Positions 19,341-56,925 of a stretch of DNA of 64,000 nt are shown here, in pieces. The DNA is taken from positions 1 through 64,000 of the IMG/VR virus record IMGVR_UViG_3300031555_002194. One strand, given 5' to 3'. The position numbers were made by a program, and so were the translations under genes. This stretch comes from a virus. Lineage: Duplodnaviria > Heunggongvirae > Uroviricota > Caudoviricetes. The first letter of the stretch is position 1. Every line of letters starts with the position of its first letter. The notes beneath the pieces were generated by a model. It searched no databases. It was not told the DNA's origin and saw only the letters and a list, made by a program, of their open reading frames with translations.

Positions 19341-19892
19341 TTAAGAGGTTCTTTTCCAAATATAAACTGCTAAATATGGAGGCATGTTATTGTGAGCTAC
19401 ATTGCCACCAATATTATTAATTGTAATATCATGAATATGATTTCCATTTGATGTTGTTGCACCAAGAATATAATCGGCGCCTGTTGTAGCTCTGTGAACA
19501 GAATAGCATCCACCACTAGAATTATATACTGCATCTTTATCTGCGCCAATTTGATGAGTATGTGCGCCATTTTCAGATAATGACGCAGTGTGATTATGAC
19601 TTGGTATTTCATCAACTGTTAATGTATGAATGGCTTCGCCACCAACGCTTCCTGCTTCATAATTATTCCCAGCAGCAAGCAAAAATGTATCTTTAATTTG
19701 TTCCCATGTTCCAAATCCAAATAATACAGATGGGTTTGCATTAATAACAGACATGTAAATAGATCCTATCGGCTATACTTGCTCTAAAACAACAGTATCT
19801 CTGTTAATCATTATCCTATTTTCATTACCAGAAGTAGAATCTAAAAAATCTGAATATAACATTCCATCATCAGTTAAATATATATCCATCAT
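19341..19892 (-). CDS. phage tail-collar-domain fibre protein (with in-frame TAG at 19773-19775)
   Basis: HTLTVDEIPSHNHTASL...HNNMPPYLAVYIWKRT is the tail-collar signature. The conserved N-terminal PIGSI motif lies upstream of the ORF-track ATG and across an in-frame TAG. Frame is open back to ATGATG at 19887-19892. Confidence 0.55.
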
Positions 19893-19977
19893 TAAATGGC
19901 GGTGGGTTTGTCATCATATTATAGGCACTACCTCGTAAAAATTTTAATTTTGCTATGATAATCACCACCTTAGAACA

Positions 19978-20796
19978 TTATTTTCGCAACTTGTTTTTCA
20001 TTATTAATTCTGAATCATATAATGTTACAGTGTTATTACCCAATATTTTTTTAATACGACCAAGGTCTATTAATAGTTTTTTCAGTTCGTCAATATTTAA
20101 ACTACATTTATGATCAGAACCTTCCATGTTTTTATCTAGCGTAATATGCCGCTCAATCAATTCGGCGCCCAAAGACATAGCGACAATTGTAGGCAATGTA
20201 TCAACTTCATGACCACTATATCCAACCTTTAGATGCGGATATTTTTTTTGATATGATGTTATAACATTAAGATCAAGTTCATTATCTAAAGCAGGGTATG
20301 TGCTGTTACAATGCATAATTCCACACAGATTATTTAGTGCAGATATTGCATTTTTAATTTCTTCTTCTGTACTCATTCCATCTGAAATAATTACAGGTAC
20401 GCCCCATTCGTTAACCGCATTTAACAATTCCATATCTGTAATACACGCACTTGGTATTTTAACAAATGGGATGTCATCAGTATATCTTTTCATAAATTCA
20501 ACACTGTCAACATCCCACACGCTTACCGTCCATTGGATACCATTTTTTTTACAGTAATCATTGATAATATCATATTCAGTTTGATCAAACTCAACATCAT
20601 ATTTGTATTCCAAATATGTCATTTCTTCATTTTTCCAGATGCGTTTTTGTGTTTTTTGATGTTCTGGAACACAAACATCTGGATTCCGTTTTTGAAATTT
20701 AACAACATCAACACCACAGCGTTTCGCTTCTTTGATGAGTTGTAAAGCGATATTTAAATCGCCATTATGATTGATGCCAATTTCTCCAATAAACAT
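19978..20796 (-). CDS. NeuB-family nonulosonic acid (sialic/Kdn-like) synthase, TIM-barrel domain only
   Basis: MFIGEIGINHNGDLNIALQLIKEAKRCGVDVVKFQ, VGYSGHE and ERHITLDK closely follow the NeuB/PseI/LegI consensus. The C-terminal SAF domain is absent. Confidence 0.8.
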   Translation of the reverse strand: MFIGEIGINHNGDLNIALQLIKEAKRCGVDVVKFQKRNPDVCVPEHQKTQKRIWKNEEMTYLEYKYDVEFDQTEYDIINDYCKKNGIQWTVSVWDVDSVEFMKRYTDDIPFVKIPSACITDMELLNAVNEWGVPVIISDGMSTEEEIKNAISALNNLCGIMHCNSTYPALDNELDLNVITSYQKKYPHLKVGYSGHEVDTLPTIVAMSLGAELIERHITLDKNMEGSDHKCSLNIDELKKLLIDLGRIKKILGNNTVTLYDSELIMKNKLRK

Positions 20797-20843
20797 ATTA
20801 TAATCTCCTTTTATTCCTTATAAATTAAAATTTGTTTTACAAA

Positions 20844-26133: not shown

Positions 26134-29100
26134 TTACACGCCAAAGGAGAACATTAATAGAACACCATATTTATTAGTGTTTGGTGATTTGATATTGTAA
26201 GTAGTACCATCTGCTTGAACCAGCCACCAATAAGATGTAGAAGCCACATTAGGAGAGCGAGTCCAATATTCTTCATAAACATCTGGCGTATCTACTTTCG
26301 CTCTTTTTCTCATTGTAGGATTTGTTATATAAGAAACACATCCGTTGGTTTCGTATGAATATGGTTCTGTATTTTTTGAATTATCCAAATCATACACAGC
26401 TGGAATGTAGAAGTAACAATTAGAGTTAGACACTTCGGACGATTTATCACCAACTGAAGAACTAACGACAACTGGTTTGATTAGCGCTTTCCATAGAGGG
26501 GAAATTGCCTTAACCAATCTTGTATTCAGCTTTCTATTCAATACTGAATCTGCCCAACCACCAGAGTTACTACTTGTTTCATAGATGATAGAGTTCATGC
26601 TCATCAGATTTGTTGCCAAGAATGTCATTTTTGACATTTTTGTATGTTCGTTTGCTAAATAGTGTGCTCTAAATTTAGCCAATTCCATAGGGATAACTTC
26701 GTGAGTCCATTGAGCAATGTCAGAACATACTTTGTCGCCAAGATCAGCTTTCCACAGTTTGCACCAATAAATAGTACCTTTACAGTGTTTTTCAATAAAA
26801 CCGTCATCGGCTTTTGCTGCGCCAAGAATTAAAGAATAATTATGTTCTGGAACTCTCGGTGCTACTAATGTCTCAATTGAAATATCTTCTTGGCTAATAT
26901 TACTCATGTAAACATGAACAGTATTGCTGCCTGCCTCATGTCTCAGCACAAGCATTTCTCTATTTGTTCCATTTGCAGGAATAGCGGTTTTGTTGTTCCA
27001 AGCCAATTTTACACCAGTGTAAGAATTGTATAGTTTAAAACCATTCATGCCATTATTTTGCATACACTGCATCAAAGTAGCACCATCTGCATTTCCTTCT
27101 GCAAATGAGAAATCACATGCTAATGTCCAAGAACAATCAGTTTCCATTAATACAATACCAGTGTCAATAAAGTTCGAGCCATCAAAATCAGTTTTTTCGT
27201 TGATAATAACAGTTTCTTCGATATCATCTGCGTGGAAATCATGACCAATTTCAAAATTGATACTATCTTTGATTGTTAGCACATCTTGTTCTAGGCCAAG
27301 TTTCATCATTGCATAAATTTCAACTTTGCTCATTTCAGAAAGTTCTTTGTTGTCAAAGCATCCTTCTGAGTATTCAAACGAATCAAATACCGCATTAATA
27401 TTTTTGTTGCCATCAACTAGTCCACTATTGTCCCAGTGGCTGAACAGATAATATTTATATGCAGATTCTTCTGCTGTATACAGTGGCAGATCTTCATCGT
27501 AAGGTACTATAGACCCGTAAGGGGCTGTTGTTGTTTGTAGAACTGTGCCTTTAGATGAATATGTCACAACATAATTTCTGACACTTTCAGAATAAGTTGC
27601 TTTAACAACTTTATCGCTAAATACCTGTCCTGTTAATGGAGTATCCCATTCTTTAAATGTAAAGTTTGTGCTTACTGTACTTTCTAAAGTAGGGGTAGGA
27701 ATAGGGTTGTCAGTTCTAGTCAGAGGATCTACTGCGTATCCACCTTTATCTACATATTGTACATCCAGTATAGTTTCATTATCGTCTGCGTTCACAAAAG
27801 TAACTGTAAACTGATTTACTAATGTATTGTAAGTAATATTTAAATCACTCCACGCATCTTTATAAATTTGTAGACTCTTTTCTTTTGCAACTGTTGTATG
27901 TACAGTACCAGTTAAGATGGACTGATCAACTGTGTAACCAGAAGAGTCAACACCTCTGAATGTTAACATTCTATCTAAGATAGATGTGTTTTCCAGATTA
28001 TAACTTGCATCCCAGTTCATATTGATTAAACGCAATGTGTTTAACATAGGTGCGTTATTGATGATATTGTATGTGTTCACTGCTGGTGTATTTTCCACAA
28101 TTAAGAACTGAAGATTGTTATATCCAGACATCTCAAATGTTTCCAGATAATTCAGATTCTTCATTGTTAGAGAGATTACTGCAGGAATGTATGCAGACAC
28201 AAGTTTTCCACCATTAGCAAAAATGATACCTGTTGCACCGGAGTTTTCAGCTCTAAGCTCAACCAGATTGTTACATTGAGATAGGTCAACAACAGAGTTG
28301 ATTCCAGTTGTATTTCTGATATCCAGATATTCAAGCAATTTGTTATTGCCAAGTGTCAGCTGTGTTAGATATGTGTTAGCATATCCATTTGCATCACTAC
28401 CAATTACAAGGCTCTGCAGTCTGGATGCTTTAGAGAAGTCATTATCACCAATATAACATTTAGATAGATCGCCAATTGCCTGAATGAAGCTTGCACCATA
28501 AATCAGTGTAATATCTGCTGTGTCGCCATCATAAGGAATTGTGTATTCTACACCAGCTTTTGCTCTAAAGTTTGTAGGTGTTGTGTTGCCACGCTTAACA
28601 CCAAGGTACATGTCAGAATATGGTGTAATATACAGTGTGAAATCCTGTTTAATTGCGGCACCAACGGGGTTGTTGAAACGCATCATAATTTGGTCTGCAG
28701 TTGCTGTCGTACCAAAGTATTTTGTTGCAAAATACAACTCCTGATTGCGTTCAAACATTCTACGCTGATATTTTTTACGGCCATTCAGCATTTCTTCTAA
28801 GAAACGAGGTGTTTGTGCGCCTTCGATAGAGTTATCAATAGAAATACCAAGGTAAGTTCTCAGATATTTTCTTTGAATATCAAGTCTCCAAATTTCTTCG
28901 GGGAATTCACTTTGTGCTTTATCAAATTGTTCAATCAAACTTGTAGCACTCCACGCATTAGCACTTTCTCTGTTAACAAACATTGCTTGCAGCTCATCTT
29001 TAAACAGGTCACGGATTCTACAGAAGAATGTACTTTCTGCCGCGCGATAGATATAAGAAGAAGTAGGATCGCCATCTACATAATAGTCTGTATCTTCTTT

Positions 29101-32100
29101 ACCATATGTCAGAACCAGTTTGCCTACATTGTCAATACCTAAAGATGTGTCCATGTCATAGCCAAAACATAAGTCCCAGCGATATACACCATCATCACAT
29201 TTGCCATAATGCCAGAAAGAGTTTTTAGCTCTGTTATCTACCATTGTATATCTTTCTGTGAACAGGTAATAATATAGGGCGGAGTCAACGATAAAATATT
29301 CATGCAGACGATCATGAAATTCTTGGTCAGAAGATGTTACTACAAATTTGTAGAACTCTCTCCACGCATCAATATTTGCTTGACGCTGTTCGTCAGTAAT
29401 ACCTTTCTTTTCGTATCTAAATTCATAAGATTTAGAACCAAAAGATTTGAAAGAGTAAGTTGTTGTACCATCATCTTCAACTTCTGCTTCGTATTCATAT
29501 TCAGCATACAGTTTGTCGTATGCGTCATTTCCAGCTTTCCATTCACTCTCAGGACAAATTCCATCTTTACCAGTAGGGAATTCTGCCAAAACAACATCGT
29601 AGTCAGTAATTTCTACAATGCATTCTTTGGGGTCAGAATCATCATTCATTCTGGTTTTATCTGTCTTTTTGTCATCACCGATGTTACCAAGAGCGTAGTA
29701 ATGGTATGTGTCAGAGTCTTTAAATTCTCTGTGATTACTAATATTTGGATCATACTCACGAACAAAGATTACACAGTTGTAGAATTCCATTGTATCCTTA
29801 ACTTTAGGATCGTTGGCTTTAGCAGGGCGTACAACTGGGTTGAACTCATTATATCTACGAGCTAACTGTGCATTATTCTGGTTTTCAGAAGATGCAATGT
29901 TTACTTTAACATTATAGAACGCAGCGGGAACTGAGTTTCTAGTTAAAGTTACTTTATCTGTTTTTGTTTTACCATCACCCAGCGTAAACTCAGATTCATC
30001 ATTGTTCATAATCAGTCTCAGGTTTCTGCCAGCGTAACCGTATTCATTAGAGGATGTGCCCTGACCAGAGTGTGAAGCACCAGTACATACCCAGTTATCC
30101 AGTACGGGGTCGCCACCTTTATAAATCATCTGGATAGTTGTGTTGGGAACTTTGTCGTCTTTGTCATTTGTAAACCAAGGACAATCAATCAGAATGATTC
30201 TCAAGTCTGGACATTTTTCAGCCAGAACTTCAGGTTTCAGAACGCCATCTTCATAGATATCATTACGATTATAACGAGCAATCATTTCATCAGCATTTCG
30301 TGCGTCAGCAATAAAGTTAGACAAAATATCTCTGTCACTCAAACTTGCTGTGTAAGCCTTCATGCGATAGATATGAACATCACAGTCTGCGCTACCAATA
30401 GTGATAGGTTTTGCATTTAACTGCATGAAAGATGTATCTGCAGAATAAATCATTGGTCTATTGCCAACGCCATCTTCATATGTCAGCACCATAGGGATGT
30501 CTGTATCTTTATTGATATTAAATTCGAATTCGATAATATCTTCTTCACAATAAGGAGAGTACAGGCTCTTATTGCTAGAATAGATTGTTGCTCCTTCGAC
30601 TTTCATATCCAGACCAACGCCACTTTCCATGCATGATACGAATGATGTATCTCTGTTTCTTACATTGGTAGTTTTAAATACCAGTTTAAATTCTTTACCA
30701 TTTCTCTTAGGGTCATCGGAAAACAAATTGTAATTGATAATAGCATTTGTACCAGATTTTACACAGAAATACTGATCACCATTTTCATCAATCTGATATC
30801 CGCCATTTACCCAGTCGAAGTTGTCAGAAACAGTCATTGTAACATCACCATCAGACCACAATCTGTCAGCACCGTTATTAGTTCTGCCAATAGGGTTGAA
30901 GTCAAATGCAAGATTACCAAGAACAGGGGAAATAGTGATATCCAGTTCTTCAACTGTTACATTGATTGTTTTAACTGTGTCTCCGCATGTGATTGTTAAC
31001 ACATGATCGCCAACATCAGCTGTTTTATACTGCCATGTATTTACATTCTGTGTTAATGTTAGGTTAGATACAACATTGCCATCAACTGCTAGAGTTACTT
31101 TAGGTGTTTCCGTAGAAGGATCGTAAACTACATATTCAATATTTGTAGAGTCATACTGTTTTACAGTAATTTCAGGAGTTCTGCAACCAATTACAGGAAT
31201 ATCACTTTCTGAATCAAACCAGATAATATCTTTATAAATATGGTCTGGTTCAACATGTACATTATTCACTGTTGCTGTGATATATGCTTCTAAGAAATGT
31301 GCGCCATGTTCCTGTGCTGGCAGAGTGTAAGACATAGGAATGCCAGAAGCGGATGTTGTTACACTGGGTAGCTCTTCTCCATCTAAGATAAAATGAATCT
31401 CTTTAGAAATAGCACCGTAAGGTGTATATGCAAACGAAACATCTCCCATAGATTGAGGGAATGTATCATTAAAGTTTGATTCTAATTTAATATCGATTTT
31501 CTGAACAGTCCATGTTTTAGTAACAAGGCTTCCTGCACTATCAGTAATGCTTAATGTTAATTTCTGAGAACCTAAAGAAATAAATTCTGTTGCATCAAAT
31601 GTGTTTTCACCATCTGTTGCAATACCAGTAGCAATAACTCTATTTCCGATTCTCCATGTGTAATCGCCCTCAGATACAATATCGCCTGAAGAGTCTGTGC
31701 CAGAAAATCTATAAGTAATTTCCACCTTATCATCAACAGTAACGATAACAGGAGATGTAGTTACATATTCAATTTTCAGAACACTGCTTGTAGAAGATCC
31801 GCCGCCTCCAGCAATTTTGAAACTGCTTTTTGCAGTACGCACTTCATTGTCACCTTCGCCTTGAATTTCCCACAGAGTGTAAAGATATTCTTCATCATAT
31901 GTAGCTTCATATGTTGTCTTAGGAGAGTTATCAAAACTATTCATTGTTTCTTCTAACTCAACAACTTTTTCAGTGAGTGCTGTAATATTATCCTCATTAT
32001 TATCAACATCAGACTCAATAGCGCCTAACTTTGTATTGATAGAAGATTCTAATGCTGACACTTTTGTGTCAACAGAAGAACTGATAGACGCTAACTGAGA

Positions 32101-37106: not shown

Positions 37107-37728
37107 ATTCCTCCTTTGTATCAATGTCAATAGTTTGTTCTTCAGGAATTTCAAGAAGAATTAAATCGTCTTTCAACATATATCCGTCTTCTTTAAATTT
37201 CTTTCTGTTGAAGATATGGAAGCAGTGGGCGCATTGAAGCCAAGGTTCAATTTCTTTTGTGGTTAGACGCTTGTAGTCAACATCTGTTACAGCATCCATG
37301 TTGTCGTTCCACAACCAATTTTGAAATTTCTTTGCGCTAGTACCATAATCTTTACCACTGTTTAAGAACTTACTGATTGCAGTAATAATAGTTTGTGGAG
37401 ATAGAAAGATAAGGCATGGATTGAGAAACATCAGATATTTTTCTGCCACATCAAGAACGTCTTTGAAGATGAACTGCAGTGGTCCTTCTGCTTCGGCAGT
37501 AGCGGGATCTCTGATAATAATTTGAACATTTGAATATTTCTCAGCAATATCAATTAGTTCTTTATCACAAATTAGCACATAAGTATTAATACCATAATAT
37601 TTTTTAATATAGTCCAGCTTCTTACAACAAATTTCAAACATACAAGTATCACCAATTGGTAAAATCTGTTTGTTTGGTAATCTATGACTGCTTAGTCTTG
37701 CTGGCACAAAAATTCCTACATGTCTCAA
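37060..37728 (-). CDS. CMP-sugar (acylneuraminate/Kdo-type) cytidylyltransferase
   Basis: N-terminus GIFVPARLSSHRLPNKQIL matches the NeuA/KdsB/PseF P-loop-like motif (PAR.GS.R.P.KN). Confidence 0.65.
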   Translation of the reverse strand: MRHVGIFVPARLSSHRLPNKQILPIGDTCMFEICCKKLDYIKKYYGINTYVLICDKELIDIAEKYSNVQIIIRDPATAEAEGPLQFIFKDVLDVAEKYLMFLNPCLIFLSPQTIITAISKFLNSGKDYGTSAKKFQNWLWNDNMDAVTDVDYKRLTTKEIEPWLQCAHCFHIFNRKKFKEDGYMLKDDLILLEIPEEQTIDIDTKEEYEYAKFKYETSEVYF

Positions 37729-38544: not shown

Positions 38545-39525
38545 TTATCCCTCCTGTATTTCTGATGCTGCATCTTTTTGTTCAAATTCTTCGTAAATAT
38601 AATTCCAACCAGAAGGTGACCCATAACAATTAATATATCTCTTTTTCTGACAATATTTACAGGGCTATGGATAATCACCATAACGAACTCTGAGTTTTTC
38701 TCTAATCTTTTCTGCTTTTTCAGAATAGTAGATATCAACCAACGGAGTGTCTTTGATATTTCCAAGAATATATTCTTTGTGATCAGGGTTGTCTGGGCGC
38801 ATATGGCAACATGGCATCACAGACCCGTCATATGCAATAGTAATGAAATATTCTGGTTCCGGACATTCTCTGGTTCGTTTATTCATATTTTCAGACCATT
38901 CGTACTGTGGCAAGTCTCCTTGTTTAAAAAATCCGCCACGATTTTCTAGTTTAATATTTTTAGACCAGTTCAATTGAACAGTCACAGATTCCATATAACG
39001 ATGTATGCCATGCAGTAAATCTAGATTTTTATCATAGCCAATTACTAGCACGCCCAACTCTTTTAATTTTTGCTTCCAATATTCCAACCCTTTGTTGTCA
39101 TAATCTTGAATTGAAACATTGGTTAACATCATGTGTTCCAAATTTTCTTTTGTAAGATAGTCACCATTTGTGTTTGTAATATAACATATTCTGTCATCTA
39201 ACACGGAACGAGCTTCATCTATGCGTCTTCGTAATAATTCAGGATCGCTAAAACTTTCTTGATAACCAAGAAACGACATAATGGCAGATGTTCCAACAGG
39301 CTCTTTACCATCTTCTCTATCCGGGAAAAATAAAGTATTATCTTTACCAAAATCTGCTTCTTTTAATTGTCTAATAAGACTTGTAAAAACATCATCAGGC
39401 ATAATTTCTTTAAAACTTCTATCAAAAACTTTGTTTGGACACCAGTCGCATTTTCTATTGCAAAAAGATTGTAATTCGAGGTCTATTCTACGAATGTGAT
39501 GCAAGTTTCTTACTCTTTCACCCAT
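38545..39525 (-). CDS. radical SAM/SPASM-like enzyme (paralog 1) containing an in-frame TAG at 38665-38667
   Basis: Radical SAM motif CNRKCDWC. After the TAG the frame continues 40 codons (PCKYCQKK...) to TAA at 38545. This restores the PCxYC motif conserved in paralog 2. Confidence 0.6.
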
Positions 39526-41468: not shown

Positions 41469-43250
41469 TTATGTTAAATCAGGGTAAATGTAAATATTAT
41501 ATGCTGTGTTGTAATAGTATGTGCCATCGTTTGTCCAAGTGATTGCAGCGCCTACAATAGATTTTACATTATTAATTAACAAAGTGTTGAATGTAGTAGA
41601 GTTTGCATAGCAATGAATATTGTATATACGAGAATTGTTTTTTCCATAAAAACAATTTACTGCATTAGACACTTTGTTTGATAATATATATATGTCACCA
41701 TCAAGATTAACACACCCATAATATGTATTACACATATTAATTACATTGTTACCACATACCGGAGAACCTGTTAAATTTGTACAACCACTATACGCTCCAG
41801 CAATATTAGTTACATTTTGTCCAAAAACAGGTGTCCCAGTGATATTTGTGCATGCACTATATGCGAATGCCATATTTGTGACTTTTTCGCCACAAACAGG
41901 AGAGCCTGTTAAATTGCGGCAATTAAAATATACACCACGCATATTTTTAACATTATCACCACAAACAGGGGAACCTGTTAATTTAACACAGTTATAATAT
42001 GTTTGAAACATTGTAACGACCTTATTGCCACAAATAGGAGACCCTGTTAGGTTTGTGCATCCTAAATATGTTTGATACATATTTGTCACATTACTTCCAC
42101 AAACAGGATAGCCTGTCAGGTTTGTGCAACTAGAATATGTATTACACATATTAATTACATTGTTTCCGCAAACAGGAGAGCCTGTCAGGTTGTGACACTG
42201 CCGATATGTATTTAACATGTTAGTTACTTTATCACCACATACAGGCGAACCTGTAAGATTTCCGCAGTTGTAGTATGCATGTGTCATATATATAGTATTT
42301 GTACCACACGCTGGAGATCCATTTAAATTAAAACAATTAGCATATGAATTTATCAAATGCACAACGTTATCTCCACACGCAGCATCTCCAACAATATTTT
42401 TACAAGCCTGATACGTGTTAGTCATATCAATAACATTATTACCGCACACAGGATATCCTGTTAAGCTATAACAATTGTTATACGTCTAATACATATTAAC
42501 AACTTTATCTCCGCATACAGGAGAGCCTGTGAGGTTGTGACAATAATCATATGTACCAGACATATTAACAACTTTATCTCCGCATACAGGAGAGCCTGTT
42601 AAATTAGAACAAGACACATATGTCTGGTACATATTAACAACGTTTTCGCCACAAATAGGAGACCCAGTTAAATTTTTACAACCGCGATATGTGCCACGAA
42701 GATTTGTTACATTATTTCCACATACAGGGGAACCTGTAATATTGTTACAAAAATAATATGTAAAAGACATGTCTGTCACATTCTCGCCGCAAATTGGAGA
42801 GCCAGTAAGATTATAACAATTGTAGTATGTATGATACATATTTTGTACATAACTATCACAAACAGGAGAACCTGTGAGATTTATGCATCCGTTAAAAAAA
42901 AATGATTTGTTTTGAATTTTAATATTCTCATCATATAACTCTGATGTGATATCATGTCTATGGTTTGCCAACCATTTAACCGAAGCTGCTGACGTATATA
43001 ATTTTCTTACATTGTAAACATTATCCGGTTGTTCATTTATGTTATTTGGATCATTACAAAAAAGCAAACTACCATTATTCTAATATAAAGCGTAACCAAT
43101 CTAATCATTGTAAATTAATTTTGCAACATTATTTTTATCGCCGTACTATGCCATAGTAATACCTGTGGCTAAGTCATAGTTGTTTCCATAATAAATTTCT
43201 GTAATATTTTTTATAGTACCATTTGGAGTTATATAAATATTTTCAACCAT
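41469..43250 (-). CDS. Cys-rich BspA-like leucine-rich-repeat protein B (about 595 aa, with in-frame TAGs at 42486, 43080, 43101 and 43146)
   Basis: Tandem ~19-aa repeats Y.NC.NLTGSPVCG.NVTNM. ORF-track pieces 42486-43067 and 41469-42449 share one frame. The TAG replaces Gln in the recurring NMYQTY motif. An N-terminal extension back to the ATG at 43248-43250 (RBS GAGGAGTG) is inferred. Confidence 0.55.
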
Positions 43251-43255
43251 ATTCA

Positions 43256-43960
43256 TCACTCCTCATATACAAAATATAATGTACCTGCTTTTAAATAGTT
43301 ACCTTCTAGGATCTGTTCGGTGGAAACCACGATAGGAAGGTCTGATATTAGATGTTCATGTGTTGGGATACATTCTTGATATAGCTGACCTCTTTTTTCT
43401 TGTAGTTTATACAATCTCACAATATGAATCTCTTGTGTGCAAATAGTTCCACTTTCACAACACATAATGTTCCCATTCATTACATCTTCTTTTGTCGTAG
43501 GGGTGGAACAGTTCCAGCACATTATTCCGCTAGTATTAACAATATCAGGTGAGAGACTAATAGAGTTGCTGACTTCAGAGCCATATTCTTCATTGTATAT
43601 TGATTGCGTAAAAACGAATGATTGAGAATCGTCACTACTAATACGGACTACAGATGAATAATATTCTTGTTCCTCTTCTGTTAATTCACTTTGTATTGCG
43701 ATTGCAGAATATTGATTACCATTATATTCAAGAATATATTGACCTCCAACAACAAGCGTTTCACATTCTAACCCAAACCATAAATTGGACTACCATTCTT
43801 CTTGTGTTTCTGAGTCAATATTATATTGTAAATTATCATTATATTCACAAATACAGATTGGTTCAATTTTATCTTCTCCAAACGGCTTTCCTTCTATCTT
43901 ATCCCATTCTGCTTTTCCAGACCCGCCACCTACAGGCAGATCACCATAATAAATACCCAT
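43256..43960 (-). CDS. Cys-rich hypothetical protein (in-frame TAG at 43790-43792)
   Basis: ATG at 43958-43960 follows AAGGAGTG. The frame is continuous to the TGA at 43256 apart from one TAG. The ORF track shows only the last 88 aa. Confidence 0.5.
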
Positions 43961-44030: not shown

Positions 44031-44270
44031 TTATTCGCTAATCTGACTTTGCAGTTTAGCAATTTCAGCTTTTTTCTTTCTAACTTCTTTTTCCAGATGA
44101 GACTTTAGGAATGTTCTACCTTCAACATCATCGCCCTCAGCAATCAGTCTGATGTTTTCATCGATCATCCACTTCATCTGATTTACTTCAGCCTCGATAC
44201 CCATAATTTTATCTTCAACGGATTCTTCTTCCATTTCAAATTCCAGTTCCATGTTTTCGTTCATTTCCAT
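44031..44270 (-). CDS. small acidic coiled-coil protein
   Basis: 79 aa. Its start overlaps the GT2 stop (TAATG). Confidence 0.4.
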   Translation of the reverse strand: MEMNENMELEFEMEEESVEDKIMGIEAEVNQMKWMIDENIRLIAEGDDVEGRTFLKSHLEKEVRKKKAEIAKLQSQISE

Positions 44271-45490
44271 TATTGTTCCTCCTCGTTATCTGTAAAAATA
44301 TAACCTTCTTCTCCCAGAACACCAGACTTCATATCAAGTTCGTGTACCCAAGCGGGTAATTCTTTTCTAATAGAATCAAACTCAGTTCTACCACCGTACT
44401 CGTCAGTTCTAATTTTGTCCATAAATTCAAAGAATGTCATTTCAGGAATAATTCCGATCATCTCCTGACCACGGGCAGCACTCTGAGATGTGTACATCAT
44501 TTTCAGAATATCATTATCAATATTCTTTTCAAAATCCTTATAGCAAGAATGATAAAATCTTTTTGCATTAAAGAAATTCTGTTTTGCAAACATAGGCTTT
44601 CTTTCTAAACACTGAATGTATGTAAAATACTGACCAATCATCTGTTCTACAGCAAATCTCATTACGTTGCCATTAAAAGGATTCTTTCTCTGACAGAATT
44701 TAACAGCATTGATTGCAGCAGCAGTTGCACCAACCTGACACAGATCCCAGTTGTACAGAGGTTCACCACCATTTTCTTCAATGCCAATTCTAGTAATAGA
44801 ATGATCACTACCTGTTTTCCATAGATAGATAGGGGAGTCAATCAGATTAATCTGAAGAGGCGTACCTTCGATTGTCATTCTAATCATCCAGTTTAATTCT
44901 CCATCTTCCATTGCTCTGAGTTTGCTAAATCTAATACCTTGTTGTCTTAGGAATGGAACATTATATAGTCTGCCAAATACCCAAGGATGACCAATGTCGT
45001 TTCTAGGCATTGTTCTAGGTGGAATCTGCTGACCACTTTGCATTAACTGCATTTTTGTCGCAGAGTTCAGATTACCTTCTGCAACTTCCTGCAGGAATGC
45101 ACCCTGAACTTCGATACAATTAGGTGTGATATTGTTGTACAGTTCTTCTAAAGCAAATGGTGTCATTAAGACATCGTCTGCGTCCATAAATGTGATCCAG
45201 TCTGTTTTACATGCTTCTAGTGCTCTTTGACGAGCCAGACCGGGGCCAGTATTTTTCTCGCAATCTAGAATTGTAATGTCTAGAGTAGGGTAGAGTTTTT
45301 TAAGGTAAGAGTATGTACCATTGTCCGAAGGATAATCATTCGCTAGGATGATAGTTGTGTCTGCTGAAATTGACTGCATCAGCACAGAAGCGAGTAGGGT
45401 AGGTAATGTCTCTTTTGCTTTATAAACTGGCACACCGATTGTTAGTTTTTTGATGTTTGAAGTGTTTTGATTATTTGTGAAGTTATTCAT
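44270..45490 (-). CDS. family-2 glycosyltransferase (GT-A fold)
   Basis: IGVPVYKAKE...ILANDYPSDNG...FMDADDVL carries the DxD motif. The internal ATG at 45490 follows AAAGGAGA. Confidence 0.75.
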   Translation of the reverse strand: MNNFTNNQNTSNIKKLTIGVPVYKAKETLPTLLASVLMQSISADTTIILANDYPSDNGTYSYLKKLYPTLDITILDCEKNTGPGLARQRALEACKTDWITFMDADDVLMTPFALEELYNNITPNCIEVQGAFLQEVAEGNLNSATKMQLMQSGQQIPPRTMPRNDIGHPWVFGRLYNVPFLRQQGIRFSKLRAMEDGELNWMIRMTIEGTPLQINLIDSPIYLWKTGSDHSITRIGIEENGGEPLYNWDLCQVGATAAAINAVKFCQRKNPFNGNVMRFAVEQMIGQYFTYIQCLERKPMFAKQNFFNAKRFYHSCYKDFEKNIDNDILKMMYTSQSAARGQEMIGIIPEMTFFEFMDKIRTDEYGGRTEFDSIRKELPAWVHELDMKSGVLGEEGYIFTDNEEEQ

Positions 45491-45596
45491 ATTTTGTCTC
45501 CTTTTAATCATTTTGATTATCAATCAAACAAAAAGATAGCGAGGATAGTCGCTCTCTAGGTTTGGTAATTTAATTGATGATTTATATTTATTGTTA

Positions 45597-47390
45597 TTAT
45601 GTTAGGTCAGGATAAATGTAAATGTTATATGTTGTGTTGTAATAGTATGTGCCTGCATTTGTCCATGTGATGTTTGCACCAACTAAAGATTGCGTGTTGT
45701 TGATTAGTAATGTATTAAATGTTGTAGAATTTGCGTAACAATGAATGTTGTATTGACGAGAGTTATTTTTGTTGTAGAAACAATTAAGAACATTAAGTAC
45801 GCTTTTAGAATACCAATATTGATTGCCAGCGGATAAATTTATGCAATTAGCATACGCATTACCCATAGTAGTAACTTTATTCCCACACACAGGGATCCCT
45901 GTTAAATTTGTACAATTATAGTATGCTGCCAACATATTTGTAACATTATTGCCACATACTGGTGAGCCATTTATATTGATACAATGCCAATATGCAGCAT
46001 GCATACTTGTAACATTATCGCCACACACTGGTGATCCACTAAGTTTTCTGCAATTAATATATGTTCCAATCATACAAGTGACATTATTACCACACACAGG
46101 ACTACCATTAAGATTTCTACAATTAATATATGCATAATACATATTTGTGACATTATTGCCACATATAGGAGAGCCTGTTAAATTTTGGCAATTTTCATAC
46201 ACATTAGACATGCTTACAATCTTATCACCACAAACAGGCGACCCAGTGATTTTGTTACAGTATTGATACGCTCTAATCATATTAATCACATTATTGCCAC
46301 ACACGGGGCTACCATTAAGATTGAAGCAATTAACATATGTTGTGTACATATTTGTAACATTATTGCCACACACAGGAGATCCTGTAAGGTTACGGCAATT
46401 AAACTATGCCCAACTCATATCAGTAACATTATCACCACACACTGGTGCACCTGTAAGGTTGTAACAATGCTAATATGTGTGATCCATATTTGTAACATTA
46501 TCACCACACACTGGTGCACCTGTAAGGTTACGGCAGTTATGATATGCACAAGACATATTTGTAACATTATCACCACACACTGGAGAACCTGTTAGGTTGA
46601 AACAATTATAATATGTATTAAACATATTTGTAACATTTTGCCCACATGCAGGAGATCCTGTAAGGTTACGGCAGTTATGATATGCACAAGACATATCTGT
46701 AACATTATTCCCACACACTGGTGCACCTGTAAGGTTGTAACAATGCTGATATGTGTGATCCATATTTGTAACATTATTACTACATACTGGTGCACCTGTA
46801 AGGTTACGGCAGTTATAATATGCGTTTTTCATATTTATAACATTGTTTCCGCACATAGGAGCACCTGTAATATTTCTGCAGTTTTCATAAGCATAAGACA
46901 TATTTGTAACATTATCACCACACACTGGTGCACCTGTAAGGTTGTAACAATGCTGATATGTGTGATCCATATTTGTAACATTATCACCACACACTGGTGC
47001 ACCTGTAAGGTTACGGCAGTTATGATATGCACAAGACATATTTGTAACATTATCACCACACACTGGAGAACCTGTTAGGTTGAAACAATTATAATATGCG
47101 TTTTTCATATTTATAACATTGTTTCCGCACATAGGAGCACCTGTAATATTTCTGCAGTTTTCATAAGCATAAGACATATCAGTAACATTATTACTACATA
47201 CTGGTGCACCTGTTAGGTTATAACAATTACAATGCATACTTGCCATATTAACTATATTTGAATAATTTAATTGAATATTTGACAATTTGTTCATATTGTA
47301 GAACGCATTTGACATATTAGTTGTCTAGATCTTCACATTATTAGGTACAACTATTTTAGTCACATTGTTCCATTGTTGAAAATTAATCAA
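45597..47390 (-). CDS. Cys-rich BspA-like leucine-rich-repeat protein A (about 598 aa, with in-frame TAGs at 46404, 46470 and 47325)
   Basis: ORF-track pieces 46470-47315 and 45597-46373 are in one frame. The TAG at 46470 aligns with Gln in the repeated HTYQHCYNLTG motif. A TTG start at 47388-47390 after GGGGGTGA is inferred. The C-terminal ~60 aa is near-identical to protein B. Confidence 0.5.
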
Positions 47391-47409: not shown

Positions 47410-48972
47410 TTATAAAACAATAGTGTCGTAGTCAGGAACGATTATCTCTGTACTAGGCTCTCCATTATAAGTTCCTTTCCATTCAGTTAATGTATATGTT
47501 CCATCAGAATTTGATTTATATTTAAAGTCTTTTAAATAACTAGGATAATCGAAGAATAGCTGCGCAATTCCATTTACATCACCTAAATATGCTTTAACAA
47601 TATTTCGTGCTACTGGTTTTATATACGCCTCAGTTTCTATTTGCGAATAAATATTAAATACCATACTGCAATCATCGCCATTATTCTAGCTTGAATCTTT
47701 TTCATACAAAAATGTTATAGAATCATCACTTTGCAACGAACATGTATTAGTTCCATTCTGTTCTCCAGAAGCTTCTATAATAATTTCAGATGTACCATCA
47801 TTTTTATCAATTCTAATTGTAAAAACATCATAATCAGGTTCAGAGGATACAGACCAATCAAATACAAGATTTATATCCATACGTGCGGTCAATGTAGTAG
47901 TCGCAATCCCTTCAACATTATTATTTGTACTAATAAGTGCATTGTTATTCCAATTAAAATAATAATCATTACCATTTAAAACAGAAAAATATGTATTGAT
48001 ATTATCTTTTGTTATGGGTGACTTAATATATGATAATTCAGTAGGTACACCAATATAAATACAAGACACAATATGAGCAACATCTTGAACTGTTGTAGAT
48101 GGTGTTTCAATTGTTGTTATAAAATTAGAAATTTCAAATGCTCCTTGTGGCACTTCACTTTGTGAATATTCATATGCAAAAAATACAGATTCTCCAGCAT
48201 TAACAAAATGATGTTCAAATTGAAAATTAGATTCAGTTATTTCATACTAAGCAATTTCATTTCCGTCGCAATCACAAACTGTGACATTTATAATTGAGAA
48301 CAATATCGGAGTTGATAAAACAGCATTAAATGAGATTGTTTGATTGTTTATAGCTGATTTAAACTCTATCCACAAGCTATGTGTATCTGTTATAGTTATT
48401 GGTGCACTAACAATTTTCCCATCTAACCAATAAAACGGATTTCCCGTATCAGATGGATCTGTGCCAATATAAATATTGCTTAAATCAACAAAATACTCGT
48501 CAATATTTTCCGGAGTAATATCAATTGTATTTGTTTTCTTTTTTTTCAATGTGATTTGGATGTCGGAAAACACCCTGTCTCCCTCTTCCAAATACATTTC
48601 ATCTTGAAACATAAAAAATACAAATTCATCTTGTTTTAAACTACATTCGAACAAAAAATCATTATCAGGAATATAATAACTTTCATCATCATTCGGCATT
48701 AACTATAAAAGTCCGGCACATCCAGTCATTCTAAATGATAATTTTTCAATATCACACAATGCATCAAAACTCATATCAGCATTTTCTCTCTGACCACAAG
48801 CAGTGTTAATGATTCTGTTATTGTCCCAGAAAAAATAAAATCCAGAACTGCTATTATCATCTCGCGCGCCACAGCCAAGATATTCGTCACAATTGTTTGC
48901 TGTAATGTTAATCACAACTTCTTCATACTCTGGAACTTCGGTTTTTACACCAATACAAGCTAATTTACTCAT
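47410..48972 (-). CDS. structural protein, 521 codons, read through TAGs at 47686, 48247 and 48703
   Basis: Four ORF-track pieces share one frame: 48703-48972, 48247-48699, 47686-48153 and 47410-47664. Each junction is a single TAG with open frame between. The final stop is TAA. Confidence 0.5.
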
Positions 48973-48983: not shown

Positions 48984-49724
48984 TCACTCAATAACGAAAT
49001 ACAAATGTCCCTCAGCCAGTGGAGTCTCTCCTGCAACTATATCTTCTGTTCCGTAAGAATAGGGTAGGTTAATATTAGAAATTGCGTTATATACAGCTTT
49101 TGCACTAGGAGTGTCATCATCTGTGGAATTTTCATCAATCACAGTAACTTTAGTGTCAGGTACTACTGTCCATTCGCCAGTAACAACCTTTAACATTTTG
49201 CCATTGTCATAATTATTTACTTCAGGTAGAGCAACAGGCATAGGAACAACTGCCCATTCACCATTAACTACCTGAACAATTTTACCATTGTCTTCTGCTG
49301 TAACTTTAGGAAGACCACTGCCAGATGCATTTTCACTATCAGTTGTGAAATACACACAGTTGTCATCTCTGTCTTCAATAGCATCCAGTTCTTCCTGAGT
49401 ACCAACCCAGAATGTGATTTTCTGACCTTTGTTCTGCTCAACAACAGAGCTAGAATCCAGACCGCTCAAAGCATCTTTTACAGCTTTAGCGGTAGGGATC
49501 ATTGTATCACTATCTTCTAAAGTAGTGGACAATGTTGCGCCATTCAGTGTGTACGCATCGCCAGCGTTTAATTTAACCCTCTGGTTATTAGGTGTGTCTA
49601 CTGTACCTAGATTCATATCGATGTACATATAGCCATCGTATGTTACCTAGCAATAGCCTTCATGAAAAGGAGTAATATCTGTTGAGATGCGAGAAGCATC
49701 ACCGTGTAAAATTTTAAATAACAC
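48984..49724 (-). CDS. structural protein (GTG start, in-frame TAG at 49647-49649)
   Basis: GAGGTGAattata precedes the GTG at 49722-49724. The ORF-track ATG at 49628 lies 6 codons downstream of the TAG. Confidence 0.45.
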
Positions 49725-49849: not shown

Positions 49850-51316
49850 TTATTCATAATTGTAAGTTTGTTCTGCAATGATAACGTCAGAAGCAACAAC
49901 ATCTACCAGTTTACCAGAAGCAGGAAGTTCAAGTTGACCTTCTGGTGCTGGGAACTGATTAAACCATACTTCGTTATCTTGGATATATGCATTATATGTA
50001 TTATATTCGGAATTTACCCATTCTTCCCATGTCATACCTTCTTCTCCTGTAAACTCATATCCGTTAGGTAGATAGAATGAGATTGTTTCTGGTTCTATAG
50101 GAGTTTCTGGCTCTTCAGGTTCTGCTGGAGGTTCTGGTTCAGGAATAACTTCTTCGATGTAATTAACAGGATAATATTCCACAAAGAACTTCATTTCAGA
50201 AGATGGCAGAGATGCGACTGTAAATGTTAGTGCATTTTCAGATAATGCAATAGCAGTAATATTGTCATCAATTTTTGCGATTAAATTACTTGATGTTTCA
50301 TATGGTTTAACATTTACAACCTGTCTTGTTGCGTCAGATAAAATACCATCAATTGTTACTGTTTGAGTTAGTGTTTCTTCATCCCAGTTTTCAACAAGCA
50401 GAGTTGCTGTTGTTAGATTATGAATGGCACTATTAGCTATATCACAAACTTCACCAATGGCATTTTCTAAGTTTTGGTAATCATCAGATGTTAAATAGTC
50501 TTGTTCGATACCTTTAACTTCGGCTTCTACAGAAGTAAGACGTCCAGCATTATCTCTCGTGCCATTGTACGCATCATCTGCTGTGTTTTGTGCAGTTTGA
50601 ACATCTTCCTGCAATTGCTCAACATCATCTTCTAAGGCACTCACTCTTTTAACAAGTTTTGTGGAACTTGTTGTATCAGACTGAATCCATTCTGCAACTT
50701 CTTGTAATGTGTCAAAGTCTGCTGAAACATTTTTACCTAAGACTGTTTCGATCGCTTCTGTTTTAGCTGAATCAATCGCATCTGTTAATTCTGATTTTGT
50801 ATCTGTAACAAGTTTGCGTAGATTCGTATCTGTGTCATCAATATCTTTAGTTAATTTTGTATCAGTATCAGAAATTGATTTTTCCAATGCTTCTCTTGTA
50901 GAATTAATTGTATTTGTTAAGTCTGTTTTAGTTGTATTAATAGAATTTGTCAGACTATCTTTTGTATCATCAATATAGTCAGTTAAATCGCTTTTTGTTT
51001 GATTTACATAATCAGTCAGCTCTGAGGATTCAATCTGTTTCCATACTTCATCAAATCTATAAAAAGAGTTTTTGTCTTTTACAAAATATAATACAGCTGT
51101 GTTTGCAGATTCAGGCAGATTTTCCTATGTATCTACTTTTAAATAGTGACCATATGTTTTGAATTCACCATCTGGTAGCGCAAGATGAATACATTCATTT
51201 GTTGCAAAATAAATGGCTCCTTGCTCAGACTTTGTTGGAATTCTTTCTAATGGCCCTTGTACTAATTTAACAATATCAGACAATGTTGCCACCGTCCTTT
51301 CTGCCTTCGCCGCCAA
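49850..51316 (-). CDS. repeat-containing fibre/baseplate protein (in-frame TAG at 51125-51127)
   Basis: The 79 codons between the TAG and the ORF-track start encode the same TK(S/D)DLTD/TNTI repeat style as the downstream 345-aa part. The exact start is uncertain. Confidence 0.45.
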
Positions 51317-53285: not shown

Positions 53286-54833
53286 TCATTTAACAATATC
53301 AAAATTGTACAAAGGGGAATACTCAATGAGTGTTAACGACATTACACCACTAGGATGTTCGGAGTTAATGCTTTGCACAATCCAGTCTTTTACCTCGTCA
53401 GTTGCAGATAGTTTAAATTGAATTTTTTCATTACCTTGCAACCATGGAATAAAGACCATTTCTAAAGTTACTGTATAGACAACTTTTGCGGCCAGCCATG
53501 TTTCATATTCTGCTCTTGTAATACAGTCGTCAATTGCTTCAATGTCATCATATTCGCCACCCTGAAACGCCTTCATTCTTTCGCCAATTCTTTCAATAGC
53601 AAAAGGGGAGTCAGGTATAATTGTCTATGTTATATCAGTTGTACCATGTTTTTCTTCATCTGCTTTTTTCTCTTCCGCAGTTGGATCAGTATTTCTTAGT
53701 TTGTTTACAGCAAAAATCTGATACTGACCAAGAAGGTACATGTTTTTTCTTCTATATCTAAATACATAACCAGCATCTTTCAAAAAAGAATTTTTCTTTA
53801 TTTTTTCTTCTGAACTGTTTGTTATATCAAATGTACCAACCAGAGTTTCTTCTCCGTCTGCGGTTGGCTTATTATAAATAGCTATTTTAGCATTGTCTGC
53901 AGCATCAACAGCTGGAATTTTAACCGCAAACTTTGTACTTGTTGGCAAACTTTTATCATCATTTAATGCGATACCAACAAAGTGAGCGGAGTATGTATTT
54001 GACGCAGCATCGTATGTACATTCTGTTGTATAATGATCTGTATCAAGACACTTACCCCAAACCTTGCTAACATTTCTAATATCTTTTAAAACACCATTAT
54101 CTGTTTCTGACATATATAATTTTTGCAAATAATCATTAGACAAAACAGGTGGATCTGTTTCAGGCATAATGTATTGTCTACAAATAAATGTGCCATCTGT
54201 ATCAAAAAACATTTCGTATCCGGGGTGCAAATCCCTTAATGTTGTAAGTATAGACCAAACTGTGTCTGTTGCACCAAATTCCAAATCGTGAGGAATTGGT
54301 TTTGGCATATCTGCAACATAATAGTTTTTAAAAGGTGAATATTCTGTTAGTGTGTGAATAATTGCTTCACGAATAGTCCATTTTTCTTCTTCATAGATAA
54401 CAGTTTCTAACCCCTCTAAAGAGCCACCAACATCACCATTCAAATAACATACTAAATCAGAACAGTTAATAGATAATGTGCCAGCTTGAACATTGTAGTT
54501 CTAATCAGTCATCACAAAGATACCTTTGTCGTAATACTTAATCTCATCATCAAAATTTGGTACACGATAGCCAATGTACACTTTGATAAATTTGTTGATC
54601 CACAATAACTTGTCTTCTTCTATGCCGATGTTTTTATTAATAACACCAAGCGTCATAGAAAATGTATGTCTAATATCTGAATCAACATTTGTTGATAAAC
54701 TACCAGAAATGAATTCATGCTTCATTTCATATACTTGCTGAAAATGTTCATTCAACAATGCGATTTTTACATACCACATCTTTTCTGGATAGTATAATTT
54801 TCTCAGGTCGTCATTGGTAGGGTAGTAAGCCAT
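53286..54833 (-). CDS. baseplate/tail protein, 515 codons, read through TAGs at 53625 and 54501
   Basis: ORF-track pieces 54501-54833, 53625-54443 and 53286-53576 share one frame, joined by single TAGs with open spacers. The final stop is TGA. Confidence 0.5.
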
Positions 54834-54835
54834 AC

Positions 54836-55741
54836 TTATGCACCTACTTCCAGATAATTAGTAAATCCATGATAATACAGGTCGGAATTGTTATATACAT
54901 CGCCAACCTCTACAAAGTTAACTGTTGTATTAACATTATCAGGATGTCCGTCAGCAGTCTCAGTAATTTGATCCACAACTGCGGCCATGTAGATTTCGCC
55001 ATTATAAAGTTTAACAATTTTCGTTTTCTTGTTATTTAAGAATTGACGAGCTTCTTTTCTGACTTTCCAACCATTTTCAAAGTCGAAAGTACATGTTTGA
55101 GGATCGTAGTCAACAAACATACCTGTAATAGCGAATTTATCATAATCCAGAGCAGAGTAATAGTTAATATAAGGATACTTAGAGTTAATAGGCTCTAAAG
55201 TAGATCCATAAACATTTCTGGACAAATTGTTTTTAGACAAGTTTGCGATAATATGATAACCTTTTGTTGTATCCATAATGAATGCACCATCAAATTCTAC
55301 ATATACGCCAACTGTCTGAGGATTTGCTTTTTCAACACCATTCACTACAGGAACTGCAGCGTATTCATAATTTGTTTTAGATGCAACCAGAATGTCATTA
55401 TAATAGAAGTTAAGATTTTCTTTATCACCATTAACATCGATTTCTAAAATCTTAGTAAATTGCAAATCGCCATCGACACGCTTTTTGATTAATAACTTAG
55501 AAATTGATTCAATAGGGAATTTAATATTACCAGCTAATAGATTTTCATCAAATGTGGCATGTAATACTGTTGTATGACCCCATTCTTCGATATCTGCAAA
55601 AGGATCTCTTGCTAAATTACTATCTATATATAAATCGCTAAACACGCCATTTTCAATTGTAATTTTATCCACTGCTACATGATAAGGAACTGGCGTAGGA
55701 TCTAATGACATATTGTATTTAAAAAAAGAACCTAAGAACAT
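54836..55741 (-). CDS. tail/baseplate protein
   Basis: 301 aa. Its start overlaps the upstream stop (TAATG). Confidence 0.5.
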   Translation of the reverse strand: MFLGSFFKYNMSLDPTPVPYHVAVDKITIENGVFSDLYIDSNLARDPFADIEEWGHTTVLHATFDENLLAGNIKFPIESISKLLIKKRVDGDLQFTKILEIDVNGDKENLNFYYNDILVASKTNYEYAAVPVVNGVEKANPQTVGVYVEFDGAFIMDTTKGYHIIANLSKNNLSRNVYGSTLEPINSKYPYINYYSALDYDKFAITGMFVDYDPQTCTFDFENGWKVRKEARQFLNNKKTKIVKLYNGEIYMAAVVDQITETADGHPDNVNTTVNFVEVGDVYNNSDLYYHGFTNYLEVGA

Positions 55742-56925
55742 TAGTTCGCGCCTCCTTCTCTAAGTGAATACGCTGATCCTTCTGGAACAGCCTGAATACG
55801 AATATCAAACATGCCATCTAAATGTTTGAAGTAAATGATAACCTGTTGACTAGGTTTTAAAGCTTCAATTTTATTGCTTTGAATGATGTAATTAAATTCT
55901 TGTCCACCAACCATTTGTTTTGCTGTCAGTTCGGCATAAAACATTGGTACATTATATCCAATAAAATTGCCCCAGTTCCAAGAAATACTAACCGTTGCAT
56001 TAACTAATTGAAAATTTGTAATAGTTGCAAAGTTTGGAATGTCAGATACAATGATATTGCACATAAAATCTTCAACAGCAAATTCATCGAAATGTACCTT
56101 TTCACCATTTAACAACTGAACTTTGTCACCACCAACATATGTTAAATCAACAGGGTCAGACTAGCCTTCGATTGATACAAAGTTAGAAGATAAATAAACT
56201 ACACCATCATCAGGCATATTCTCTGCATTAAAAGATAGGAATAAGTCTGGTTCTTGGTAATTGCAAGAAAACTGTACGAGTGGAGTTGAAATCATCAGGC
56301 CACTAACAGTTTTACATGTAGCCTGTAAGTAATACTCACCATTGTCTACTAGGTCAGAAATTTTTACAGTTTTTGTAGAAGCAAGTTTTGTGCCACTTGA
56401 CCACACAAATGTTTTCTGAGCACCAGCATATAATGTCATTGACCATGTGTCTAATAATTCATCATTTTTTTCTTGGTAATATGAAACTCCAACTTCAAAC
56501 CAGCTACTATAAATAACATCTTTATTTTTAAGATTGGAGAATGAAAATACTGGTGTTTTAAAACATCTCAGAGCAACACGAGGGCTTGGCGCGCTGTATG
56601 CCAGTTCTTCAACTATTACTTCATATTCTTCATTGGTTTCAGGATTAATTTTCTTTTCAGTTCTTCTGGTTTTAACTTTTACATACAATTCAAAATTATA
56701 TGCGTTACTATTAAATAACAAACCAGAAGGAACTTTTGCGACAGCATCTAAAATAGTATTTGCTTGTTCAAGTGATTCAACAGTTTGAACTAATGTATTT
56801 GTGATGTTGTCGTAAATCAAAATTTTATAGCCATAAATCTGAGAGCCGTTATATGTATAATGTAAATCACATCCAAGATCGGCATCAAAAGGCATGGTAT
56901 TTAAAATAATAGGGGAGACATCCAT
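55741..56925 (-). CDS. tail protein (possible distal tail protein), 394 codons, read through TAG at 56161
   Basis: ORF-track pieces 56161-56925 and 55741-56115 share one frame. The 15 codons after the TAG are open. Confidence 0.5.

Follow-up and report, generated by a model that had tools for sequence, protein, structure and literature searches.

Here we analyze a 64,000-nucleotide stretch of viral DNA (the window; positions 1 to 64,000 of IMG/VR record IMGVR_UViG_3300031555_002194, Caudoviricetes), in which ten late genes carry TAG codons inside their reading frames. The window has a G+C content of 34% and consists of a plus-strand early block and a minus-strand late block, the genes of which fill 19.3-62.8 kb (Table 1). 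The ten genes encode baseplate, tail-fibre and repeat proteins and one radical-SAM enzyme. An original prediction, made from the letters of the sequence, held that TAG is a sense codon in the late genes and never a true stop, and that it most likely specifies glutamine. The first of these claims was confirmed; as to the second, the codon is probably read as tyrosine.

Table 1. The ten TAG-containing late genes and the early-region features of the window
Feature	Coordinates	Strand	Codons	In-frame TAG	Remarks
Gp10_C-type baseplate/tail-fibre tip protein	19341..19892	-	183	19773	Pfam Gp10_C, residues 36-182, spans the TAG
Radical-SAM/SPASM enzyme, paralog 1	38545..39525	-	326	38665	Pfam SPASM and Radical_SAM
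Cys-rich 23-residue-repeat protein 1	41469..43256	-	595	43146, 43101, 43080, 42486	18 units
Hypothetical late protein	43256..43960	-	234	43790	TAG also in contig L287
Cys-rich 23-residue-repeat protein 2	45597..47390	-	597	47325, 46470, 46404	21 units
Hypothetical tail-associated protein	47410..48972	-	520	48703, 48247, 47686	three TAG-separated ORFs, one frame
Tail-tip-domain protein	48984..49724	-	246	49647	GTG start after GAGGTGA; weak Pfam Phage_tail_C match
Coiled-coil tail-fibre-like protein	49850..51292	-	480	51125
DUF5048 baseplate protein	53286..54833	-	515	54501, 53625
Baseplate-module protein	55741..56925	-	394	56161
Early/replication and nucleotide-metabolism block	1..19200	+		0	33 genes; terminators TAA 22, TGA 11, TAG 0
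Tyrosine integrase	17211-18446	+			early block

TAG as a sense codon in ten late genes

The original prediction listed ten open reading frames (ORFs) that end in TAG and eight further TAGs in short gaps, and all 18 proved to be CTA on the plus strand, that is, TAG on the minus strand, in the frame of long minus-strand ORFs. Under genetic code 11 each TAG-ended ORF adjoins the next ORF of the same frame, as in 48978->47410 (three TAGs), 54857->53286 (two) and 43262->41469 (four), and with TAA and TGA as the sole stops the ten genes become continuous. Nothing other than TAG breaks their frames: they contain no in-frame TAA or TGA and no frameshift. The gene callers of JGI and ENA split these genes at the TAGs, in keeping with the warning that standard-code annotation would fragment them, and readthrough restores full-length proteins that match their homologues.

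Counts were made on a curated list of 67 genes (33 early, 34 late), with starts set with the help of Shine-Dalgarno sequences. The late genes hold 18 in-frame TAGs in 14169 codons, compared with none in the 5791 codons of the early genes (Fisher p = 0.006). As a terminator the codon is absent throughout: TAA ends 48 of the 67 genes and TGA the other 19, and the early genes, for which this pattern had been claimed, follow it without exception. TAG makes up 15% of the stop trinucleotides over all frames, at which rate its absence from 67 terminators has a probability of ~2e-5. A further TAG, at 47394, is not part of a coding sequence, since it separates a Shine-Dalgarno sequence from the TTG start.

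The reading frames that continue past the TAGs are coding by several kinds of evidence. The chance of a stop-free run of the observed length is 2e-10 for the 424 codons that follow 51125 and 8e-3 for a run of 91 codons, whereas the 39 codons after 38665 are weak evidence by this measure (~0.13), so that homology decides at this site. Downstream of 38665 stands a conserved PCKYCQK motif (the PCxYCxK of the radical-SAM family), as in the homologues and as originally claimed from the second paralog. The tail-collar motif that readthrough had been said to recover is likewise present, PIGSIY following 19773 inside the Gp10_C match. At the level of domains, the Pfam matches of Gp10_C and SPASM span their TAGs, and that of DUF5048 begins just after 53625. 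More than 40 homologues of the DUF5048 protein, of ~516 residues and up to 85% identical, align with it from end to end across both TAGs. For the 520-codon protein, the homologue P0241 aligns over 48703 and 48247, and 47686 is spanned by a weaker alignment to P0241 and by other homologues; orthologues in L007-L012 and L295 align across 56161. Repeat protein 1 forms one frame that begins with an ATG downstream of a GAGGAG Shine-Dalgarno sequence, repeat protein 2 starts with TTG after GGGGGTGA, and the hypothetical protein at 43256-43960 has an unbroken frame from an ATG preceded by AGGAGTGA.

Independently assembled contigs in JGI and ENA (L282-L292, from at least six samples) share 16 of the TAG sites, namely 42486, 43080, 43101, 43146, 43790, 46404, 46470, 47325, 47686, 48247, 48703, 49647, 51125, 53625, 54501 and 56161, which excludes sequencing or assembly error. 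The TAGs of repeat protein 1 recur in L287, those of the 520-codon protein in both L287 and L288, 51125 in six contigs, 49647 in five and 56161 in four. No nucleotide context motif is shared around the TAGs, so that decoding would be general and not a site-specific readthrough, and, since several genes contain three or four TAGs, it must be efficient as well. TAG is thus a sense codon in the ten late genes and never a terminator in this window, and the homology shows that the full-length conserved proteins require its readthrough.

The repeat proteins deserve a separate description. The original prediction regarded them as leucine-rich repeat (LRR) arrays; the repeats are real, but Pfam makes no LRR call on either array, and the unit is instead a Cys-rich sequence of 23 residues, NMxxxYxxCxNLTGSPVCGxNV, present in 18 and 21 copies in the two paralogs. 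The number of units varies between samples (the window compared with L287:7183-8063), which suggests a hypervariable host-recognition protein.

The residue aligned with TAG

Every TAG of the window that falls on a conserved column has tyrosine as the residue of that column: 19773, 54501, 53625, 49647 and 46404. The broadest comparison is available at 19773, where 118 homologues of the Gp10_C family have Tyr in 114 cases, His in two, and Phe and Trp in one each, within the motif VYP[IV]GSIY. Among the closest homologues of the DUF5048 protein, Tyr is found in 45 of 47 at 54501 and in 46 of 47 at 53625; more distant members have Phe, Met or Leu in the 53625 column. TAG 46404 occupies the invariant Tyr position of the repeat unit, with Y in 36 of the 38 other units, and 49647 has Tyr opposite it in L011, the one orthologue available. 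The columns of 38665, 42486, 46470, 47686, 48247, 48703 and 56161 are variable. At 38665, for example, the homologues have E 29, K 16, D 15, Q 3 and Y 2 among others, and at 56161 the residues are S, E, K, D and A, so that these columns carry no information on the amino acid. No alignable homologue was found for 43080, 43101, 43146, 43790, 47325 and 51125.

Related phages provide independent cases. The relatives L007, L011, L012 and L293 bear TAGs of their own at other Tyr columns, mostly not those of the window. We translated TAG as X in the late-gene loci L007-L012, L293 and L295 and counted the residues opposite X across genomes. Of the TAG sites in six related phages, 41 could be compared with two or more informative orthologues; Tyr is in the majority at 21 of these, Phe at three, and Lys and Leu at one each, 15 are mixed, and none has Gln as its majority residue. 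Pair by pair the picture is the same, with Y 100, F 24, L 11 and Q 2 in ~190 aligned pairs, and the glutamine assignment of the original prediction does not survive this tally. The log-likelihood of the TAG profile, based on substitution profiles taken from these alignments, is -323 for Tyr and -460 for Phe in this tally, and lower for every other residue.

Two features of the pattern argue that it originates in decoding. It takes two changes to turn a Phe codon into TAG, so that the matches to Phe reflect exchange of Tyr and Phe at the protein level and not mutational proximity. Similarly, TAA is as accessible as TAG from TAT and TAC, yet no in-frame TAA occurs, which indicates that the pattern reflects how TAG is decoded and not its mutational neighbourhood. 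As the alignments show, TAG occurs in columns of conserved Tyr (or Tyr/Phe), in the window and independently in several related phages, and on this basis TAG is probably read as tyrosine in the ten late genes. Peptides across the TAG sites would, under this reading, include EQV[Y]PIGSIYMSVINANPSVLFGFGTWEQIK and GIFVMTD[Y]NYNVQAGTLSINCSDLVCYLNGDVGGSLEGLETVIYEEEK, with a difference of 35.0 Da between a Tyr and a Gln residue.

Candidate decoding agents and alternative readings

The supF suppressor of E. coli is a tRNA-Tyr in which a single anticodon change (GUA->CUA) leads to efficient insertion of Tyr at UAG, the tRNA still being charged by tyrosyl-tRNA synthetase. It offers a mechanistic precedent, although it is a laboratory or mutant cellular allele, while the present reassignment would be fixed in the genes of a natural phage clade. 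The simplest agent would be a natural counterpart of such a suppressor: an amber-suppressor tRNA with tyrosine identity and the anticodon CUA, which the tyrosyl-tRNA synthetase of the host would charge and which would act late in infection. Outward walking by exact-protein look-ups extended the window by 5.2 kb to the left (L013) and by 9.3 kb to the right (L001), using contigs of this phage assembled from other samples, so that ~78 kb of the genome was examined. Head and packaging genes were not seen in these ~78 kb, and the genome is therefore larger than the examined part; the suppressor tRNA would be encoded in that head and packaging region or, less likely, by the host.

Several observations weigh against tyrosine or against a tRNA of this kind. 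In the ~78 kb neither ARAGORN nor Rfam, with gathering as well as permissive thresholds, detected any tRNA, and there is no CUA tRNA in ~60 loci of relatives. Variable columns account for about half of the TAG sites, which are thus uninformative. Two repeat sites match Gln in the nearest paralogous units, from which they differ by a single C/T exchange (CAG<->TAG). The original prediction had relied on these two (NMY[TAG]TY and HTY[TAG]HC); the differences are real, but the sites (46470, where the nearest copies have Q, and 42486) are those at which the repeat varies most, with Tyr as the commonest residue at 46470. In the strain variant L285 (L285:2206-2208), on a contig that is otherwise 99.9% identical, TTA (Leu) replaces TAG 53625 by two adjacent base differences. 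Finally, TAG is unevenly distributed: it accounts for 18 of the 279 tyrosine-type codons of the ten genes (~6.5%) but for none of the 511 tyrosine codons of the other 24 late genes (p = 5e-9).

The most durable alternative dispenses with a dedicated suppressor. Here the tRNA-Tyr of the host (GUA/QUA) would decode UAG as a near-cognate codon, with release factor 1 (RF1) blocked or outcompeted late in infection, for example by a phage function that disables it. tRNA-Tyr is known to read through the UAG of tobacco mosaic virus, and near-cognate decoding of UAG occurs in E. coli deleted for RF1. The tobacco mosaic virus case involves one programmed UAG with a downstream CAR-YYA context and a low efficiency; it resembles ours in placing Tyr at a viral UAG, but here there are 18 sites without a shared context, and full-length products are needed. 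The missing tRNA genes and the sparse use of TAG, 18 codons in all, would suit this explanation, as would the report that about half of the predicted code-15 phages have no Sup-CTA tRNA (PMC11210395). On the other hand, the genome is incomplete, genes with three or four TAGs demand efficient decoding, TAG is much denser in relatives such as L012, no readthrough-promoting context is present, and no RF1-targeting function was recognized in the scanned parts. We consider this explanation unlikely, and a suppressor tRNA with tyrosine identity the simpler agent.

Glutamine, as in genetic code 15 of the crAss-like, Lak and phAss-1 phages, is less probable still. It is the sole amber reassignment described and validated in phages (PMC10607447, PMC11210395, bioRxiv 10.1101/2022.01.06.475225), it would account for the two CAG<->TAG repeat differences, and some database homologues do have Q at the columns in question. 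These database glutamines, however, are themselves TAG codons: the Q of P0024 in the 54501 column is TAG in the DNA, and the same holds for P0003 and P0022 (DNA in L012, L011 and L293 for P0024, P0003 and P0022, respectively). Public protein records thus show Q at invariant Tyr columns because gene callers translated TAG by code 15. A screen for Q in a conserved-Y column gave additional likely cases in P0004, P0010 and P0040. No site lies on a conserved Gln column, compared with five in the window and 21 in the clade on conserved Tyr, and the first tally gave a log-likelihood of -220 for Tyr compared with -532 for Gln. Replacement by glutamine of the invariant tyrosine in VYPxGSIY and of the two invariant baseplate tyrosines would moreover be non-conservative, and would have been repeated independently in several phages.

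That TAG specifies some other residue (Phe, Leu or a non-canonical aromatic amino acid), or is decoded ambiguously, has a very low probability. Phe is the second commonest residue opposite TAG, Leu occupies 53625 in the strain variant, and alignment statistics cannot tell Tyr from a Tyr-like non-canonical residue; but the log-likelihood of Tyr exceeds that of Phe by ~137 units and that of Leu by more than 300, Tyr and not Phe is the residue of the strictly conserved columns, and no genes for Pyl-type or extra aminoacyl-tRNA synthetases occur in the scanned parts. Pyrrolysine was considered separately and rejected: the radical-SAM proteins are of the SPASM type and not PylB-like, no aminoacyl-tRNA synthetase was found in the scanned parts, and the columns are Tyr/Phe and not Lys. 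That the TAGs are true stops, in decaying pseudogenes, a defective prophage, misassembled contigs or deliberately truncated genes, is the default of the standard code and the view built into the JGI and ENA gene calls, but it can hardly be maintained for essential baseplate and tail genes whose frames are broken by TAG alone, never by TAA, TGA or a frameshift, and at different sites in several related phages, nearly always at Tyr codons, with conserved domains and motifs carrying on past TAGs that are identical across samples and that nowhere serve as terminators.

The tRNA searches yielded observations of a different kind. The early regions of relatives encode tRNA-Ile(UAU), tRNA-Leu, tRNA-Met, tRNA-Gln and two odd tRNAs, none with a CUA anticodon. 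A tRNA in the early region of one relative (L022:767-856) has 90 nucleotides, a long variable arm of class II shape and the anticodon UAU, which reads AUA; its acceptor begins with GCGAA and its discriminator is A, as in tRNA-Leu, and if charged by leucyl-tRNA synthetase it would place Leu at AUA codons. A tRNA-like gene beside tRNA-Gln(UUG) (L074:6784-6854 and L076:4157-4227) has an anticodon loop of only 6 nucleotides (CTCACT), to which ARAGORN assigns a 2-base anticodon; it could represent a pseudo-tRNA or else a tRNA of the frameshift type. A pattern scan of IMG/VR, in which a CUA anticodon arm of Tyr type was combined with a T-arm, had no contig of this clade among the matches listed. Unrelated IMG/VR phages among these matches do encode CUA tRNAs of 89-94 nucleotides (L083, L090, L104, L115, L119, L121, L127, L133, L149 and L154), with acceptor U1-A72, G73 and a conserved insert of ~20 nucleotides in the variable region (..CTGAAGG/CTGAGGGCG..); L104 and L121 bear a second CUA tRNA of 73 nucleotides. 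We rejected the longer tRNAs as support for tyrosine, their U1-A72/G73 ends being Gln-like and the phages unrelated.

The phage, its relatives and known codes

The early block encodes, among others, DNA ligase, ThyX, NrdD/NrdG, FolD, a dUTPase-like protein and an SPFH-domain protein. Besides the Gp10_C-type baseplate-tip protein, the DUF5048 baseplate protein, the tail-fibre-like proteins and the two Cys-rich repeat proteins, the late block encodes NeuB, a 2422-residue DUF6273 protein, a C39-like peptidase, a holin, a phosphoheptose-isomerase-like protein, two radical-SAM/SPASM paralogs, a glycosyltransferase and an 1822-residue protein; most late proteins have no PHROGs annotation. On the left extension lie genes for a DnaE-like polymerase and a RecD-like helicase, and on the right extension those for PemK, a tape-measure protein (with one in-frame TAG of its own) and cysteine desulfurase. 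The PemK-family toxin gene (L001:1802-2221), immediately beyond the right edge of the window, separates the tape-measure gene from that of the 1822-residue protein. A set of late genes for sugars and cofactors comprises NeuB, the phosphoheptose-isomerase-like protein, the two radical-SAM/SPASM proteins, a GtrB-like glycosyltransferase and the cysteine desulfurase (window 19978-20796, 36453-37154, 37725-39525 and 44270-45523; L001:9766-10908), to which relatives add genes for a CTP-transferase and a mannose-6-P isomerase-like protein; these genes may form a pathway for nonulosonic acid or glycan modification.

The window is most of the genome of a tailed gut Clostridia phage of roughly 80-100 kb. 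Megablast found no close relative among GenBank phages, exact DNA words from the window and L001 had no match in IMG/VR, and neither IMG/VR nor the JGI metagenomes yielded anything in a further rightward walk with Aminotran_5, the N-terminus of the tape-measure protein and a chaperone-like protein of 213 residues. The baseplate protein reaches at best 25-29% identity with GenBank phages, those of Enterocloster, and the DnaE-like polymerase is less than 35% identical to GenBank phage proteins. A polymerase 65% identical to it lies within a 267-kb contig of Ruthenibacterium lactatiformans 585-1, and one 80% identical on a 72-kb contig binned with a Clostridia metagenome-assembled genome. These relatives point to Oscillospiraceae or other Clostridia as hosts and, together with the integrase, to a temperate lifestyle.

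Among the relatives the load of in-frame TAG varies widely, from none in 21 kb of L295 through three in L007 and about a dozen in L011 to more than 20 in 21 kb of L012, and in some of them TAG makes up roughly a tenth of the tyrosine codons. L295 (JGI 3300032167, a 179-kb contig) is a sibling with a baseplate protein 66% identical and with syntenic late genes, found without in-frame TAG in the same samples as the recoded phage. Within the window, none of the 295 tyrosine codons of the early genes is TAG, and the TAG-free late genes include the holin, the lysis/peptidase genes and two giant ORFs (26134-33402, 2422 codons; 57277-62745, 1822 codons), which together have 198 tyrosine codons and differ in this from neighbouring tail genes. 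Later expression of the TAG-containing genes, or import by recombination of tail modules from more recoded relatives, are possibilities for this patchiness. In more distant relatives TAG, including tandem TAG-TAG, is conserved at the C-terminal ends of early genes (L030-L043, gene ~5032-6684, codons 541-542; L021/L031, gene 6637-7680, codon 342), where it appears to be a genuine stop. This fits the published model in which early genes use the standard code and late genes an altered one. An RVT_1 reverse transcriptase (L012:17240-18442) lies among the tail-fibre genes of the TAG-rich relative L012, possibly as part of a diversity-generating retroelement.

Comparison with known systems places the window close to the code-15 gut phages (crAss-like, Lak, phAss-1 and the clades of Borges et al.), with which it shares TAG as a sense codon, a host presumed to use the standard code, low G+C, the bias of TAG to late and structural genes, TAG-free early genes, TAG-depleted terminators and fragmentation of genes under the standard code. 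It differs from them in the tyrosine assignment, in having no Sup-CTA tRNA in the ~78 kb and in its TAG-free lysis genes, and its lineage is set apart by its association with Clostridia and the lack of a close GenBank phage relative. In genetic code 29, the Mesodinium nuclear code, UAA and UAG both specify Tyr. UAG would thus have the meaning proposed here, but that code is eukaryotic and genome-wide, whereas the present case is viral and partial, confined to late genes. Moreover, TAA ends most genes of the window and is never in frame, so that the code would not be code 29 but a variant involving TAG only. In the searchable literature amber reassignment in phages is always treated as Gln, often by default (PMC8008677, PMC10607447, PMC11210395). 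A Tyr isotype is predicted for 1.1% of the ribozyme-associated tRNA-Sup genes of phages (PMC10879173); apart from this prediction, our literature searches turned up no account of TAG->Tyr in phages. The window and its relatives thus look like a clade of Clostridia phages in which TAG would be Tyr and the stops are TAA and TGA, a code undescribed as such in the searchable literature.

Two cases, TAG->Gln and TGA->Trp, are at present recognized in the stop-codon recoding of phages, and gene callers and databases hard-wire the former. If the tyrosine reading is true, amber reassignment arose more than once in phages and with different amino acids, so that the amino acid needs to be inferred lineage by lineage and not assumed; annotation, structure prediction and homology searches would be systematically wrong at the tyrosines of such phages. 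For genetic-code engineering, too, a gut phage with a natural Tyr amber-suppressor system could be of interest. Standard-code, lightly recoded and heavily recoded close relatives occur in the same samples, and as such form a natural series for the spread of a code change.

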